DNA from: an uncultured Clostridia bacterium
Lineage (GTDB): Bacteria; Bacillota; Clostridia; Christensenellales; Borkfalkiaceae
DNA: 42,330 nucleotides
Direction: 5' to 3'
Assembly (NCBI GenBank): GCA_964483715.1
Contig: CAZACR010000001.1
Location: forward strand, 1 to 42,330
In this document: positions 21,228 through 32,423 of the stretch, one piece after another
Layout: every line of letters starts with the position of its first letter
How positions within the stretch are numbered: the stretch's first letter is position 1
The notes under the pieces: model-generated
What the model saw: only the letters and a program-made list of their open reading frames with translations
Told to the model about the DNA's origin: nothing
Database searches by the model: none
Made by a program: the position numbers and the translations under genes

Positions 21228-24200
21228 TCAATATGAAGCTGTCGGAAAGATTTTGTCCCAATCGACGGAAGGATCGTCCTGAACACCCAGCAATTTAAAC
21301 AACAATTTAAGTGCTGTAATAATATTATCTTCTGAACCTTCCAGATTTTCACTACCACCTAATATTATGTCTTCTATTAAGGATAAATCCAACCATACCG
21401 GATAAATCTTAACGCCTTGCGGAACTTTATCCATATTTGAGATTGAATATTCGATATCATCGATTGAATTCGCGTTTTCCTTGGTAGACCAACCGACAAC
21501 CAACGAATCTTCAACAGAAATAACCGGAACCCACCAGGTAGCATTTTTAGAACTGTCAAGGAAATAAACATTCTCCAAATTGCTATCGGTCATCGTTATG
21601 GATTTGATAAACTTGCCGTCGTCTTCCATCTCCACGTTCCAAACTACGGGTCTTTGTGAAGAATTCCAATCGCCTTTCCAGCTTTCGTGCGCACCATCTG
21701 AGCAACAGTAAACGGTTAAAAGACCGTTGTTTGCGAACACATGGGAGCCCATACTCTCCACGCCTTCCTCGATTATTACCGAGCATAATGTCCTATCCCT
21801 GAACGCCATATCGCCTACATACTTGACCGTTGACGGTATTGTCACCGTCTTCAACGCAATGCCGTAAGCAAACGCACGCGCGCCGATATATTCCACTTTA
21901 CCCAAATCCAGTGTCTGAAGTAAGCTGGCACCGTAAAAGGCGTAGTTACCTATTGTTTTAACCGTGTCGGGAAGCTTGACTTCTTTCAAAGATGTGCAAT
22001 TTAAAAATGCAGCTGCGTCAATCGACGTTAATCCTTGCGTAAATTCTACAGTCTCCAAGCTTGAACAGTTAGCGAAAGTACCGTAACGCACGGCTTTTAC
22101 GCCTTGCGGAATTATCAAAGTTTTTATAGAACTGCAATTGGTAAACGCACACCCCCCTATTTCTTCCAGTTTTTCACGCAGGTTAACAGCTTGCAAATTT
22201 ACGCAACCGTAAAATGCATAGTTGCCGATAGAAGTTAAATCAGGAGAACGCATAAAGTCTACTTCGGTAAGGCTTGTACACATCGAGAAAGCGTAATCCT
22301 CAATAGTCTCCAAACTGCGCGGCAAGGATATGCTGAACAGATTTTTGCAATAATAGAAAGTAAAACTGCCTATCTTTTGTATGTTGGCGTTGAGCGTAAT
22401 GCTTGCCAGCGACTGGCAATTATAGAACGCGTAATCGCCGATATATTCCACATCGGTTGCTCCGGTAATATTAGCAAGATTAGTATTGTCTAAAAACGCC
22501 GCGCCGGCTATACCGCGCGTACCCTTTTGTAAAGATACGGAGGAAGGATATTGAAGCATAGGATTATCCGGATCACCGGTATCGATAACGTCCGGTCTTG
22601 CGCCTATCGCCCAGTTACCCGCATAAAAAACACTGCCTTCGTAGTTGTTCGGGTCTTTCATTTTTGTTTCGTCAAACGCGCAAAAACCTATTTCGGTAAC
22701 CGTGTTCGGAATAAACGATTTATCTATTTCCCCGTCTATTTTCTTGTTATCGAGCACGGAACACTTGTAAAAAGCGTGTCCGCCTATCTTTTGCAATTTA
22801 TTTCCGAAGTCGATATTGTTCAACTCGGTACAATAGCTGAAAGCGTAATTACCTATTTCCAAAAGCCCGTTGGGGCGGATTCTTAAACGCCACAGCTTTT
22901 TACATGAAGAAAACGCACCGGCGCCGAGATATTTTATGGAAGGCGCAAGCGTTACTGAAAGCAATTCGGAACTGTCCGAAAAAGCGTAATTTGATATGCC
23001 GCGTAACCCGCTTTTTAAAGGCAACTGTGCAGTTTTTATTTCGTTGTCGTTTTCATCAAACTGAACGAGAGTAAAATTACTTTCGTCGATAGTCCTTAAC
23101 TTAACTTGTTCACCCAGATAAAATCCAACGAGCCAATCGCCCAAATAAACGGCGGGGCTATCGCTTTTTACAAATTTCGTACCCCTTAAGATTTCTCTAC
23201 CGACTGCGGTTAAATTCTCCACTCCGTTAATTTCTTCCAGCGATAAAGCACCTGCAAACACTCCGTCATCCAGCACAGTCACCGTAGAAGGTAGCGTTAT
23301 GCTTTTTAGTTTCGAGCAATATGCAAATGAAAGTGATCCCAAATTGTTGAGCTCGGACTCCAGAGAAAATTCCACTGTTTCAAGCTCGGAACATCCGTAA
23401 AAGGTATTTTGGGGCAATCTGCTAAGTCCGCTGCCAACTTTTGCCGTAGTCAGCGATTTGCAATCTTTAAACACCGACATACCAATTACCGTTACTCCGT
23501 CCGGTATTGTCAACTCGGTTAAAGAGCTACAATTTTCGAACGCGCCTTTACCTATCGTGGTAACATTATTTAAGTTAATACTTGTCAGCGACGAACAATA
23601 AGCGAAACAGTCTTCCGGCAAAGCGGTTACAGCGTCCGGAATATTCACGCTTTTAAGGTTTGAGCACATTAAAAACGCCGCGGTATCAATAAATGACAGA
23701 CTTTCAGGCAACACCACCGTTTCCAAAGTCGCGCAGTTAGCAAATGCACTGGCACCTATGCTTCGCACCTTGTTGCCGACGGTCAAATGAGTAATTTCGC
23801 TTCTTAAGCCTGCAAATGCGCTTACGCCTATACTCGTTACGGGTTTACCCCTGTAATAATCTTCTATTACCAACTCGCCGGAGGCATTTCCCACCCTGTA
23901 AACTTCATACTCGGTATTGTTTGCAATCAGATTGTAAATGCAACCCGTTTCATGGTCGCGGTGGAAAGCTATACTTTCCGACCAATCGGAAGATGAAAAT
24001 TTCTTGCCGTCGCCTATAGCCTTTACCCTGAATTCATAGTCGCCTTCTTCCAAGTCGGAAAGCGCATAGTTCGACCTTCTCGGATTTTTTTCTTCCGTTT
24101 TTCCTGTAGCAACCGTTTTAATCTCAACAGCATAGCTACGGGCGTTTTCCACAGAAGCCCAATGCAAAACGATATCGTCGTCTATATTAAAGTCCGAGGG

Positions 24201-24296
24201 CACGTCAAGCTTCTGCCGCGCACAACCTGCCGTAAAAATCGACAGGACGCACAGCATAACAGCCAGTACGATAGCCAATAATCTGGACTTTTTCAT
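21228..24296 (-). CDS. Surface lipoprotein (1,022 aa) with an Fn3-like module, a BspA-type LRR array and a C-terminal Flg_new-like module
   Basis: ATG 24296 is preceded by AAGGAG. Lipobox FTAGC (Cys25). Fn3-type signature VLHWASVENARSYAVEI. Many LRR units, such as VTTIGKGAFENCSSLTELTIPDGVTVIGMSVFKDCKSLTTAKV. C-terminal LVVGWSTKENA...IYPVW. The gap to the upstream vWA gene is only 34 nt. Confidence 0.88.
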   Translation of the reverse strand: MKKSRLLAIVLAVMLCVLSIFTAGCARQKLDVPSDFNIDDDIVLHWASVENARSYAVEIKTVATGKTEEKNPRRSNYALSDLEEGDYEFRVKAIGDGKKFSSSDWSESIAFHRDHETGCIYNLIANNTEYEVYRVGNASGELVIEDYYRGKPVTSIGVSAFAGLRSEITHLTVGNKVRSIGASAFANCATLETVVLPESLSFIDTAAFLMCSNLKSVNIPDAVTALPEDCFAYCSSLTSINLNNVTTIGKGAFENCSSLTELTIPDGVTVIGMSVFKDCKSLTTAKVGSGLSRLPQNTFYGCSELETVEFSLESELNNLGSLSFAYCSKLKSITLPSTVTVLDDGVFAGALSLEEINGVENLTAVGREILRGTKFVKSDSPAVYLGDWLVGFYLGEQVKLRTIDESNFTLVQFDENDNEIKTAQLPLKSGLRGISNYAFSDSSELLSVTLAPSIKYLGAGAFSSCKKLWRLRIRPNGLLEIGNYAFSYCTELNNIDFGNKLQKIGGHAFYKCSVLDNKKIDGEIDKSFIPNTVTEIGFCAFDETKMKDPNNYEGSVFYAGNWAIGARPDVIDTGDPDNPMLQYPSSVSLQKGTRGIAGAAFLDNTNLANITGATDVEYIGDYAFYNCQSLASITLNANIQKIGSFTFYYCKNLFSISLPRSLETIEDYAFSMCTSLTEVDFMRSPDLTSIGNYAFYGCVNLQAVNLREKLEEIGGCAFTNCSSIKTLIIPQGVKAVRYGTFANCSSLETVEFTQGLTSIDAAAFLNCTSLKEVKLPDTVKTIGNYAFYGASLLQTLDLGKVEYIGARAFAYGIALKTVTIPSTVKYVGDMAFRDRTLCSVIIEEGVESMGSHVFANNGLLTVYCCSDGAHESWKGDWNSSQRPVVWNVEMEDDGKFIKSITMTDSNLENVYFLDSSKNATWWVPVISVEDSLVVGWSTKENANSIDDIEYSISNMDKVPQGVKIYPVWLDLSLIEDIILGGSENLEGSEDNIITALKLLFKLLGVQDDPSVDWDKIFPTASY
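21717..23924 (-). repeat. BspA-type LRR coding array in the 1,022-aa lipoprotein gene (about aa 125-860)
   Basis: Same repeat consensus (AF..C..L..I.IP..V..IG) as the arrays in the 2,475-aa and 3,148-aa genes. Boundaries by eye. Confidence 0.75.
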
Positions 24297-24330
24297 AATT
24301 TAAAACTCCTTAAAATTGCCGTGCGAACAC

Positions 24331-32281: not shown

Positions 32282-32396
32282 AAAAACAACCTCCTTATAT
32301 TATTTTCCTTCTGAATTAACAAACTATTTAGGCGCTGCGAATATTCATTCTAATATGTATAAATTTATAGCCGCCTTTCGGTTTGTTTCGTATTAG

Positions 32397-32423
32397 TTTA
32401 TACCATTATAATCAGTTTGTCAA
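32397..32423 (-). promoter_or_regulatory. Putative promoter for the MoxR/vWA unit within a 346-bp AT-rich spacer
   Basis: On the minus strand: TTGACA (32423-32418), a 15-nt spacer (shorter than ideal), then TGgTATAAA (extended -10; hexamer 32402-32397). This lies about 115 nt upstream of ATG 32281. Other A/T hexamers in the spacer could serve instead. Confidence 0.3.

Follow-up and report, generated by a model that had tools for sequence, protein, structure and literature searches.

A conserved operon of gut Clostridia that pairs a MoxR-DUF58-vWA module with an LRR lipoprotein and points to a possible apparatus for surface assembly or adhesion

Results

Organization of the block

The window (the whole stretch of DNA that was analysed, 42,330 nt from an uncultured Clostridia bacterium) contains a block of six genes, referred to here from first to last as g1, MoxR (g2), DUF58 (g3), g4, g5 and g6. 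The block, its members and its flanking features all lie on the minus strand, and are as follows.

32628..42074 (-): giant lipoprotein of 3148 aa with Flg_new, Fn3-like repeats and 18 LRR_5 stretches, upstream of g1 and separately transcribed
32582..32609 (-): terminator-like hairpin (12-bp stem, 6 G-C pairs) 3' of the giant LRR gene, the upstream operon boundary
32395..32423 (-): promoter-like site before g1, TTGACA-17-TAAACT (10/12 match)
21228-32281 (-): six-gene block g1-MoxR-DUF58-g4-g5-g6, from the list of open reading frames and Pfam matches
31226..32281 (-): g1, 351-aa membrane protein with Pfam Flg_new_2 and three hydrophobic segments
30201..31199 (-): g2, cytoplasmic MoxR-type AAA+ ATPase (Pfam AAA_3 and AAA_lid_2)
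29265..30164 (-): g3, vWA-like DUF58 protein (Pfam DUF58, E=1e-31)
27265..29268 (-): g4, 667-aa membrane protein (Pfam BatA and VWA_2; TIGR02226)
24331..27252 (-): g5, 973-aa membrane protein with two VWA domains (Pfam)
21228..24296 (-): g6, 1022-aa LRR_5 lipoprotein (LRR_5 E=3e-159; signal peptide; lipobox ...FTAGC)
21166..21197 (-): terminator-like hairpin (13-bp stem) 3' of g6
21093-21064 (-): promoter-like site for the gene after g6, beyond the preceding hairpin
15911..20995 (-): lipoprotein of 1694 aa, downstream of g6, with Flg_new repeats at the N-terminus, then a long uncharacterised stretch

The intergenic gaps from g1 to g6 are 26, 36, -4, 12 and 34 nt, and an RBS-like sequence or a 4-nt overlap is found at the start of every one of the six genes. 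An earlier note on this DNA had described six genes with gaps of -4 to 36 nt and a hairpin on either side, a layout borne out by the open reading frames, the Pfam matches and the hairpin scan. Of the span it had given (21228-32423), the 21228 end stands, but coding stops at 32281, and 32423 belongs to the -35 hexamer of the promoter-like site. This site sits in the AT-rich intergenic region (346 nt) 5' of g1; because promoter-like matches across the region are no more numerous than in shuffled sequence, such sites are given little weight by themselves.

The cytoplasmic pair

The MoxR protein scores E=2e-61 for AAA_3 and E=8e-16 for AAA_lid_2, and its Walker A (GVPGVGKT) and Walker B (ILADE) motifs are intact. 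DUF58 lies directly 3' of MoxR, an adjacency kept in 69 of the related loci described below. It has no TM segment, and carries the MIDAS motif DxSxS in the form FLDCSASM. The 4-nt overlap between the g3 stop and the g4 start is nearly invariant across 75 loci.

The membrane proteins

Alignments and positive-inside counts predict that the N-terminal part of g1 consists of a cytoplasmic N-terminus, TM1, TM2, a conserved cytoplasmic insert of about 50 aa (motif ARRxDxLGL[DE]ER..TM...Q[RK]) and TM3. After TM3 come a predicted extracellular Flg_new_2 domain (28.5 bits, Pfam cut-off 23.6), a disordered linker of about 60 aa rich in G/D/E/P, and a small conserved C-terminal domain (motif DGxTxYGD). 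The AF2 model has a pLDDT of 82, and clustering at 50% leaves 1777 representatives of the N-terminal module.

In g4, a BatA-N double-TM segment (30.7 bits, Pfam cut-off 25.9) is followed by a predicted extracellular vWA domain with MIDAS residues D96/S98/S100, a beta-sandwich, a GATase1-like domain, a further beta-sandwich and a C-terminal TM. The vWA, beta-sandwich and GATase1-like domains are seen in the AF2 model (pLDDT 83), for which Foldseek returns STM3548, ThuA-like proteins, BatB (3ibs) and 6c26_B. The g5 protein has an N-terminal double-TM segment, two predicted extracellular vWA domains (MIDAS residues D81/S83 and D454/S456/S458), a faint GATase1-like region, a C-terminal TM and a basic, conserved cytoplasmic tail (R950 K951 F952 K953 .. 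W956. H958 E959). Its first vWA domain matches the BatB/BatA crystal structures 3ibs (E=6e-6) and 4jdu. A BatA-N domain had also been assigned to g5, but Pfam does not call one there; what remains is a two-TM N-terminal segment weakly like that of g4 (BLASTP E=0.002). Positive-inside counts place the vWA domains of both proteins outside the cytoplasm, and the segments predicted to face the cytoplasm are short, at about 13-32 aa.

The LRR lipoprotein

The g6 protein, which has six LRR_5 stretches by Pfam, consists of a family-specific Fn3-like N-terminal module, two LRR_5 repeat blocks and a variable C-terminus. Of the Fn3 and LRR domains previously ascribed to it, LRR_5 is confirmed, but Pfam finds no Fn3 in the window protein at E<0.01, and Fn3 is weak in one orthologue (locus L001). 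The closest solved structures are 4fs7 and 4gt6, both LRR_5 proteins of gut bacteria. All 68 open reading frames at the g6 position in related loci match the window g6 best, rather than arbitrary LRR_5 genes; a probe made from the non-LRR N-terminal part matches this operon position only, and the lipobox cysteine (Cys25) is kept in at least 95% of orthologues. By these sequence comparisons, the g6 proteins make up an orthologous family of their own, set apart by the N-terminal module.

Conservation in related genomes

The related loci number 83, all from gut MAGs, three found via g1 and 80 via g4, and the order g1-MoxR-DUF58-g4-g5-g6 is conserved in both sets. All carriers are uncultured and belong to a single group of gut Clostridia, Christensenellales and their relatives; their hosts are humans, rodents, rabbits, ruminants and birds. 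The pairing of the MoxR/vWA module with the LRR lipoprotein is found in about 70 species-representative genomes, and because of this recurrence the arrangement is far beyond chance. Where the position after g5 can be observed, it is occupied by an orthologous LRR lipoprotein in 67 of 68 loci, and g1, MoxR and DUF58 precede g4 in 54 of 59. Median gaps are 43 (g1-g2), 19, -4, 14 and 20 nt (g5-g6), with many 4-nt overlaps at the g5-g6 junction, while no gap before g1 is shorter than 83 nt (median 195 nt). Terminator-like hairpins are nearly absent from internal junctions (0/59, 4/69, 1/82 and 1/68), and a hairpin with a T-run is present in 26 of 50 intergenic regions between the giant gene and g1. 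The survey of related neighbourhoods that the earlier note had proposed therefore favours linkage, both for the LRR lipoprotein with MoxR cassettes and for g1 as a conserved member of the block. At the level of sequence, the six genes are a conserved operon of Christensenellales-type gut Clostridia.

The neighbourhood of the block differs by genome (rhaA/ffh, the his operon, rpoC/upp or serine dehydratase), and there are polyphyletic paralogous copies that lack the ATPase and retain g1-g4-g5-g6. On these two grounds the block is best described as a unit. Because the ATPase-less copies keep these four genes, the LRR lipoprotein is more closely linked with the membrane vWA proteins than with the ATPase.

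Median identity to orthologues is 82% for MoxR and 68% for DUF58, and lies at 33-43% for g1, g4, g5 and g6 (33% for g1, 35% for g6 and 40% for g4). Within g1, g4 and g5, the best-conserved parts are the TM segments, cytoplasmic loops and tails, and the MIDAS DxSxS motif is kept across orthologues in DUF58, g4 and both vWA domains of g5.

Neighbouring genes

An orthologous giant gene lies directly upstream of g1 in 47 of 54 loci, and in three more with one gene between. An orthologue of the 1694-aa lipoprotein follows g6 in 37 of 62 loci, and in 19 of the remaining 25 its place is taken by an unrelated lipoprotein of 938-1150 aa; adjacency of the two flanking genes is thus usual, not invariable. 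Only five of the 37 gaps between g6 and the downstream lipoprotein gene carry a hairpin, so in many species the two are probably co-transcribed. Many LRR_5 genes occur in the window and in carrier genomes. Elsewhere in the window are genes for an S8+PA+fn3_5 protease fused to LRR_5 and, downstream, an Opp-like transporter with an 869-aa binding protein; S8-LRR homologues are the second gene downstream in loci L040, L057 and L076. In L036, a redoxin/thioredoxin-like gene is found just before g1.

Discussion

Few prokaryotic gene modules are, to our knowledge, as widespread as MoxR-DUF58-vWA cassettes ("Bat", for Bacteroides aerotolerance), which have no accepted function. The Bat operon was first characterised in B. 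fragilis (PMC11834572). No link between MoxR/DUF58 and LRR proteins was found in the literature searched, and the recurrent pairing described here points to an undescribed apparatus for cell-surface assembly or adhesion. Gene linkage, topology and the pattern of conservation suggest that the ATPase and vWA proteins may mature, anchor or regulate LRR ectodomains. Our preferred reading, to which we give a probability of roughly 0.45, is that extracellular MIDAS/vWA scaffolds hold or assemble LRR lipoproteins and are coupled, via three membrane proteins, to a Bat-like MoxR/DUF58 motor.

Under this model, g1, g4 and g5 would form a membrane complex whose large, fast-evolving ectodomains are displayed outside the cell, namely three MIDAS-bearing vWA domains, GATase1-like and beta-sandwich scaffolds, and Flg_new_2 with its tethered C-terminal mini-domain. 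The ectodomains would bind and organise the co-encoded g6 through a metal-dependent vWA-LRR contact, and would probably also bind the neighbouring giant LRR and Flg_new lipoproteins. Inside the cell, DUF58, as a vWA-like MIDAS adaptor, would bring a MoxR hexamer into contact with g1, g4 and g5 at their conserved cytoplasmic loops and tails, and ATP-driven remodelling would assemble, reset or switch the complex, much like NorQ/NorD, RavA/ViaA and CbbQ/CbbO. The physical complex, the binding of LRRs by vWA ectodomains, and the direction and purpose of ATPase action are what we infer. Several observations count against the model: the short cytoplasmic segments of g4 and g5 offer little surface for an AAA+ machine to grip; the ATPase-less copies show that a membrane/LRR part can occur with no motor encoded in cis; carrier genomes are rich in LRR_5 genes; and described Bat/MoxR operons are tied to stress or aerotolerance and to cytoplasmic clients, not to surface adhesins (PMC11834572).

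A bolder form of the model, which we regard as speculative and rather improbable, is an "inside-out" trans-membrane adhesion machine of monoderm gut bacteria. Here MoxR/DUF58 would use ATP to switch the ligand-binding state of the extracellular MIDAS/vWA domains via the loops and tails of the three membrane proteins, and the vWA domains would dock, load or release LRR lipoprotein adhesins, including giants of >3000 aa. If true, this would be a bacterial counterpart, in logic, of integrin inside-out activation, and the first Bat-type MoxR cassette with an identifiable, co-encoded client.

The block might instead be a generic Bat-like module for envelope or stress homeostasis, acting in stress or aerotolerance and in envelope integrity as in Bacteroides, Borrelia, Francisella or Riemerella, with the LRR lipoprotein as co-transcribed cargo and not a partner or client. 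The match of the first g5 vWA domain to BatB/BatA structures, the BatA-N domain of g4, the redoxin/thioredoxin-like gene of L036, and the high conservation of MoxR and DUF58, as in other Bat operons (PMC11834572), are all in keeping with this. We nevertheless think it unlikely, although worth serious consideration: TPR and BatD-type proteins are absent, g6 is retained in 67/68 loci and often translationally coupled to g5, and its persistence in copies without the ATPase is hard to explain for a passenger gene. Distinctly less probable is a substrate-capture (foraging) complex, in which LRR/Flg_new lipoproteins and vWA/GATase1(GIFT)-like ectodomains bind a host or dietary glycoprotein and feed an S8 cell-envelope protease and an Opp-type peptide importer, MoxR/DUF58 only helping assembly. 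The window does encode the protease, the transporter and its binding protein, and S8-LRR homologues occur downstream in three related loci, but these genes lie outside the conserved block, their linkage is checkable in few loci, and the block itself has no catalytic domain. A further point in its favour, the likeness of the g4 GATase1-like domain to OST subunit chain 6c26_B, is one of fold only (about 10% identity).

Synteny without functional coupling, arising from shared descent in one clade and an abundance of LRR_5 genes, would fit the restriction of all 83 loci to one group of gut Clostridia and the many LRR_5 genes in the window. This is already disfavoured, and we consider it very improbable, given the deep divergence of g1, g4 and g6, the 4-nt overlaps, the different neighbourhoods, the same partners kept in independent paralogous copies, and the strict orthology of g6. 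MoxR-vWA-beta-propeller ternary conflict systems, in which a bpMoxR-type ATPase goes together with a cytoplasmic vWA-effector fusion and a beta-propeller partner, have reportedly been described by Kaur et al. in 2020, and a secondary bpMoxR match on MoxR (E=1e-10) recalls them; AAA_3 scores far higher, the vWA domains are predicted to be extracellular, and Pfam matches in the block include no beta-propeller, effector or caspase-like domain. PADLOC finds no defence system beyond weak generic AAA matches, and a conflict or defence function is effectively rejected.

In this form of the cassette, the operon itself encodes probable partners for the extracellular vWA domains (the dedicated LRR lipoprotein g6 and the Flg_new membrane protein), usually with a giant LRR adhesin adjoining, and the question of Bat protein targets becomes a concrete, testable pairing. 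Surface proteins take more than 20 kb of the locus, and their fast evolution beside a near-constant cytoplasmic motor is the signature expected of an adhesion apparatus exposed to host or phage.

Comparison with known systems

VWF-A1 and platelet GPIb-alpha form a direct, regulated adhesive vWA-LRR pair in eukaryotes. They offer a structural precedent, by analogy, for the proposed contact between the g4/g5 vWA domains and the g6 LRR, with homology limited to the folds and with a VWF-A1 that lacks a functional MIDAS. LRR_5 repeats are common to g6, the giant lipoprotein and BspA-type proteins (Tannerella BspA, Treponema LrrA/TpLRR, Streptococcus HupY/LrrG, gut Bacteroides 4fs7 and 4gt6). Both g6 and the giant are predicted to be lipid-anchored surface proteins, and g6 combines tandem LRR_5 with an export/anchoring signal, as BspA-type proteins do. 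It differs in its family-specific N-terminal module, found at this operon position only, and we know of no BspA-type adhesin encoded in a MoxR/DUF58/vWA operon.

DUF4175/TIGR02302-type membrane proteins accompany MoxR-DUF58-BatA cassettes in Proteobacteria and Planctomycetes, and resemble g1 in overall plan, with TMs at the N-terminus, then a linker of low complexity, then a C-terminus that is conserved. The g1 N-terminal consensus matches DUF4175 (PF13779) weakly (14.1 bits, E=0.012, under the 27.3-bit cut-off) and collinearly (g1 residues 17-97 with profile positions 16-98), and two of 12 individual members of the g1 module match the profile (best E=0.0014). Unlike DUF4175 proteins, g1 has a Flg_new_2 domain and less than half the length of the 825-position profile.

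In NorQ/NorD, RavA/ViaA, CbbQ/CbbO and CoxD/CoxE, a MoxR-class AAA+ hexamer works with a cytoplasmic vWA/MIDAS adaptor encoded beside it, of which DUF58 would be the counterpart, and these pairs provide a mechanistic template for how the ATPase may engage its target (PMC9976466, PMC13036017). Their targets are enzymes, either soluble or in the membrane (cNOR, fumarate reductase/Nuo, Rubisco, CO dehydrogenase), that undergo cofactor insertion or release, whereas the only candidate targets encoded nearby here are membrane vWA proteins and surface lipoproteins.

The closest relatives in layout are the Bat-like, MRP-type MoxR operons (B. fragilis batA-E with MoxR and DUF58; Borrelia bb0170-bb0176; Leptospira, Francisella and Riemerella), which have the same order of MoxR, DUF58 and two membrane vWA proteins, share the N-terminal BatA-type double-TM segment with g4 and g5, and likewise have MoxR as the best-conserved member (PMC11834572). 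The predicted outward topology of the g4 and g5 vWA domains agrees with that of BatA-type BB0173, whose vWA domain was mapped experimentally outside the cytoplasm (PMC5700661). The TPR (BatB/C/E-type), SH3 and BatD proteins of Bat operons are absent here, with no TPR or BatD Pfam match in the six genes or their neighbours, and the pairing with LRR in place of TPR, to which the earlier note had drawn attention, genuinely sets the block apart from the Bat operons described so far (PMC11834572, PMC5700661). Bat vWA proteins are about 330 aa long, in contrast to 667 aa for g4 and 973 aa for g5, which add beta-sandwich and GATase1-like domains and a C-terminal anchor. The host, in addition, is a monoderm Clostridia lineage, and its operon opens with a 3-TM/Flg_new_2 protein and closes with an LRR_5 lipoprotein.

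Six genes and their boundaries in the window

All large ORFs of the window lie on the minus strand. ORF calling and Pfam searches confirm the six-gene content described in the earlier note, which had given the block an extent of 21228-32423; the genes are all present there, but the coding part stops at 32281. The six genes (g1 to g6) and their flanking sites are, from 5' to 3':

32609-32582, minus strand: hairpin at the end of the upstream giant gene, which encodes a 3148-aa LRR protein (sequence scan)
32423-32395, minus strand: promoter-like site in the spacer before g1 (promoter scan)
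31226-32281, minus strand: g1, 351 aa, three hydrophobic segments and Flg_new_2 (ORF, Pfam)
30201-31199, minus strand: g2, MoxR AAA_3 ATPase (ORF, Pfam)
29265-30164, minus strand: g3, DUF58 protein (ORF, Pfam)
27265-29268, minus strand: g4, 667 aa, BatA-N and VWA_2 (ORF, Pfam)
24331-27252, minus strand: g5, 973 aa, two vWA domains and a faint GATase1_like signal (ORF, domain search)
21228-24296, minus strand: g6, 1022-aa LRR_5 protein with a lipoprotein signal (ORF, Pfam)
21197-21166, minus strand: 13-bp hairpin 3' of g6, followed by a promoter-like site for the next gene (sequence scan)

Two further domain assignments, BatA-N on g5 and Fn3 on g6, received no Pfam call in the window. The gaps from g1 to g6 are 26, 36, -4, 12 and 34 nt, each start codon is either preceded by an RBS-like sequence or part of a 4-nt overlap, and the spacer between the giant-gene hairpin and g1 is AT-rich and 346 nt long. 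Promoter-like matches in the region showed no enrichment over shuffled sequence, so the boundaries of the block rest more on comparative data. An Rfam scan of the window gave zero families at the gathering score, and the only match in the 5' leader was at chance level (IsrM, 14 bits, with a gathering score of 376 bits); riboswitch control of the operon is therefore not supported.

Conservation of the block in relatives

Three independent contigs, found via g1, have the same six-gene order with g1 homologues that are only 30-35% identical. The g4 family comprises more than 721 clusters, with names such as "VWA domain-containing protein" or [quoted passage not shown]. A g4 profile scan of one genome per species gave 298 confirmed relatives, of which the best 80 loci were fetched and annotated as six-frame ORFs labelled by phmmer against the window proteins. 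These best 80 of 298 all come from gut MAGs (humans, mice, rabbits, deer, goat, sheep, reindeer and chicken), and the carriers, all uncultured, are labeled Clostridia, Christensenellaceae, Ca. Borkfalkia, Ca. Scatosoma, Ca. Gallimonas or Clostridium sp. CAG:448.

The earlier note had called for a survey of LRR and Flg_new genes linked to the MoxR cassette in relatives, and the linkage is borne out. Across 83 loci (the best 80 of 298 by g4 and the three found via g1), from which ~60 orthologous six-gene sets were recovered (L001-L088), an LRR protein lies 3' of g5 in 67 of the 68 in which this position is visible, and g1, MoxR and DUF58 lie 5' of g4 in 54 of 59. By phmmer, all ORFs at the g6 position (68/68) match the window g6 better than they match the giant or the S8-LRR protein of the window, and a probe restricted to the first 125 residues of g6, which lie outside the LRRs, matches the g6 position and only one other ORF. 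Thus g6 represents an orthologous family, as opposed to an arbitrary LRR_5 gene. We consider it highly probable (about 0.9) that the block is a conserved operon with a dedicated LRR lipoprotein.

The spacing of the genes is also conserved. Across the same 83 loci, the median gaps are 43 nt (g1-g2), 19 (g2-g3), -4 (g3-g4), 14 (g4-g5) and 20 (g5-g6); the g3-g4 overlap of -4 is nearly invariant, and many g5-g6 junctions are 4-nt overlaps. The spacer 5' of g1 has a median of 195 nt and is never shorter than 83 nt, and 26 of 50 such spacers contain a terminator-like hairpin with a T-run. Such hairpins are rare within the block (0/59 for g1-g2, 4/69 for g2-g3, 1/82 for g4-g5 and 1/68 for g5-g6). Together, the gap sizes and hairpin distribution support a single predicted transcription unit from g1 to g6. 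After g6, terminator-like hairpins occur in 5 of 37 spacers, and readthrough into the next lipoprotein gene probably takes place in many species.

Neighborhoods of the block

An orthologue of the giant LRR gene is directly 5' of g1 in 47 of 54 loci (among the 83), and three further loci have one gene between them. These intervening genes encode a 411-aa redoxin/thioredoxin-like protein (L036:5359-6594), a second g1 paralogue (L068:5389-6483) and a 443-aa protein without recognized identity (L077:5281-6612); the redoxin deserves note in view of the past association of Bat operons with "aerotolerance". Elsewhere (L001, L050, L079 and L026) the block adjoins rhaA/ffh/rpsP, the his operon, rpoC/uracil permease/upp, or serine dehydratase. 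From this gene order, the block itself is the conserved unit.

On the 3' side, the gene next to g6 encodes an orthologue of the 1694-aa Flg_new lipoprotein in 37 of 62 loci (among the 83); a PDB sequence search with the window copy gave no useful match. In 19 of the 25 remaining loci the position is occupied by a different lipoprotein of 938-1150 aa, with zero detectable similarity to any window protein (L027, L039, L040, L044, L054, L057, L060, L062, L064, L067-L069, L074, L076, L082-L085 and L087, all of a sub-clade without the 1694-aa protein). It begins -17 to 348 nt from g6, and within 150 nt except in L062. The slot after g6 thus seems reserved for a large lipoprotein of whatever family.

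Farther 3' in the window (700-15867, minus strand) are a 2475-aa S8 subtilase (PA and fn3_5) that is fused to LRR_5 repeats and resembles cell-envelope or C5a peptidases, an ABC importer of the Opp type whose SBP_bac_5 protein is unusually long (869 aa), a 525-aa protein without assignment and a 469-aa ATPase. By its gene content, this region looks like a protein-foraging locus. S8-LRR homologues are found downstream in a few relatives (L040, L057 and L076).

Protein anatomy

The Walker A and B motifs of MoxR are intact, and DUF58, which has no TM segment, carries a conserved DxSxS MIDAS motif. In both g4 and g5, two TM segments lie at the N-terminus and a third at the C-terminus. The TM1-TM2 loop has a mean of 8.8 (g4) or 6.4 (g5) Lys/Arg, and the first 15 residues of the g5 tail have a mean of 5.1, against about one in the flanks of the middle regions (555 aa in g4, 824 aa in g5). 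By the positive-inside rule, these counts predict that the vWA-containing regions are extracellular. The same topology was mapped experimentally for the Borrelia BatA-type protein BB0173 (PMC5700661). MIDAS residues are conserved in orthologue alignments of the g4 vWA domain and both g5 vWA domains, and the first g5 vWA matches BatB and BatA crystal structures by sequence.

A PDB sequence search with g4 gave no useful match. In its AlphaFold model (pLDDT 83), a vWA domain is followed by two beta-sandwiches that flank a GATase1-like alpha/beta domain, and the chain ends in a TM helix; Foldseek matches of the model include STM3548, ThuA-like proteins, GATase domains, BatB (3ibs) and the yeast OST complex. 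The best of these is 6c26 chain B, which we take to be Wbp1/OST48 (E=2e-7, 416 columns, g4 residues ~350-660), and in both, an alpha/beta domain of GATase1/GIFT-like type is combined with a beta-sandwich and a TM helix at the C-terminus.

The g1 model (pLDDT 82) begins with a cytoplasmic helix that runs into TM1, followed by TM2, a strongly conserved cytoplasmic helical insert of ~50 aa (ARRxDxLGL[DE]ER..TM) and TM3. TM3 leads outside the cell to the Flg_new_2 beta-grasp, from which a disordered linker of ~60 aa, acidic and glycine-rich, extends to a small C-terminal domain. This last domain (residues ~295-351; window 31226-31400, minus strand) is conserved, well predicted and extracellular, with a DGxTxYGD motif and two helices; on its linker it is reminiscent of a tethered ligand or plug. 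Against the PDB, the model has no significant analogue, with faint matches for the beta-grasp only, and the N-terminal module has a weak, collinear, sub-threshold match to DUF4175. Word-indexed searches returned 13 relatives with g1 and four fragments with a profile of 63 g1 N-termini, and the resulting impression of a small family is an artefact: an exhaustive profile search finds 1777 representatives of the N-terminal module at 50% clustering. Family sizes from indexed searches are unreliable for fast-evolving proteins such as g1. A weak partial g1 match in a phage-like context (P0013/L008) is unrelated to the system.

Copies lacking the ATPase

Six loci, paralogue copies of the block, lack MoxR and DUF58 yet have g1, g4 and g5 (L026, L058, L081, L084, L014 and L072), and L055 lacks only MoxR. 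The g6 gene is in view at three of the six, and L081 is without it. Two MAGs have an ATPase-less copy beside a complete one (L014/L065 and L041/L072), and the g4 proteins of the two copies are ~40% identical. Polyphyly of the ATPase-less copies, which are not mutual closest relatives, implies repeated loss of MoxR/DUF58; these copies possibly use the ATPase in trans. Because g1, g4 and g5, with g6 where visible, are kept without the ATPase, g1 and g6 are tied even more tightly to the membrane vWA proteins than to the ATPase.

Proposed mechanism and alternatives

Compared with the window proteins, orthologues of MoxR have a median identity of 82%, those of DUF58 68%, g5 43%, g4 40%, g6 35% and g1 33%. 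Conservation within g1, g4 and g5 is highest in the TM segments, the cytoplasmic loops and the tail of g5, and the ectodomains are variable. This pattern fits a constant cytoplasmic machine that would touch constant cytoplasm-facing segments, with exposed parts that evolve rapidly.

From the gene linkage, predicted topology and conservation pattern we infer the protein contacts and the role of ATP. The template is the pairing of MoxR with a vWA-type adaptor in NorQ/NorD, RavA/ViaA and CbbQ/CbbO, as described in PMC9976466 and PMC13036017. By analogy, DUF58 would be the adaptor that couples a MoxR hexamer to its target, and the only conserved cytoplasm-facing candidates for that target would be the loops and tails of g1, g4 and g5, among them the g1 loop 72-124, the g4 loop 25-57 and the g5 tail 950-973. 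On the outside, the lipid-anchored g6, and usually also the giant LRR protein and another large lipoprotein, would face three MIDAS sites, Flg_new_2 and scaffolds of GATase1-like and beta-sandwich type. Binding of a vWA domain to an LRR protein has a structural precedent in VWF-A1/GPIb-alpha. Our preferred reading is a membrane complex for the docking or assembly of LRR lipoproteins, in which ATP would drive assembly or switching from the cytoplasmic side. We put this specific mechanism forward tentatively, at somewhat less than even odds.

One rival is a generic stress module of the Bat type, in which g6 would be a passenger. It agrees with the Bat operon literature (PMC11834572), but leaves unexplained why g4 and g5 keep g6 and g1 beside them upon loss of the ATPase. 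Another rival is a substrate-capture complex that would supply the nearby S8-LRR protease and Opp importer. Mere synteny is disfavored by the divergence of the genes, their overlaps, the varied neighborhoods and the paralogue copies. Domain content and a defense-system search led us to reject a MoxR-vWA defense system. The docking complex remains the reading that we favor.

Comparison with known systems

No relevant paper came up in literature searches that paired MoxR/DUF58 with the LRR proteins (leucine-rich repeat, LRR_5, BspA) or with the lineage (Christensenellales, Borkfalkia), and as far as we found, the g1-type first gene and the g6-type last gene are new to MoxR/DUF58/vWA cassettes. 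The core of the block (MoxR, DUF58 and two BatA-type membrane vWA proteins) has three of the four sequence-testable defining features of Bat. It differs in that the TPR and BatD partners are missing from the window block, and in that the g4 and g5 vWA proteins are two to three times the length of BatA/BatB. The block supplies a concrete candidate client for a Bat-like module.
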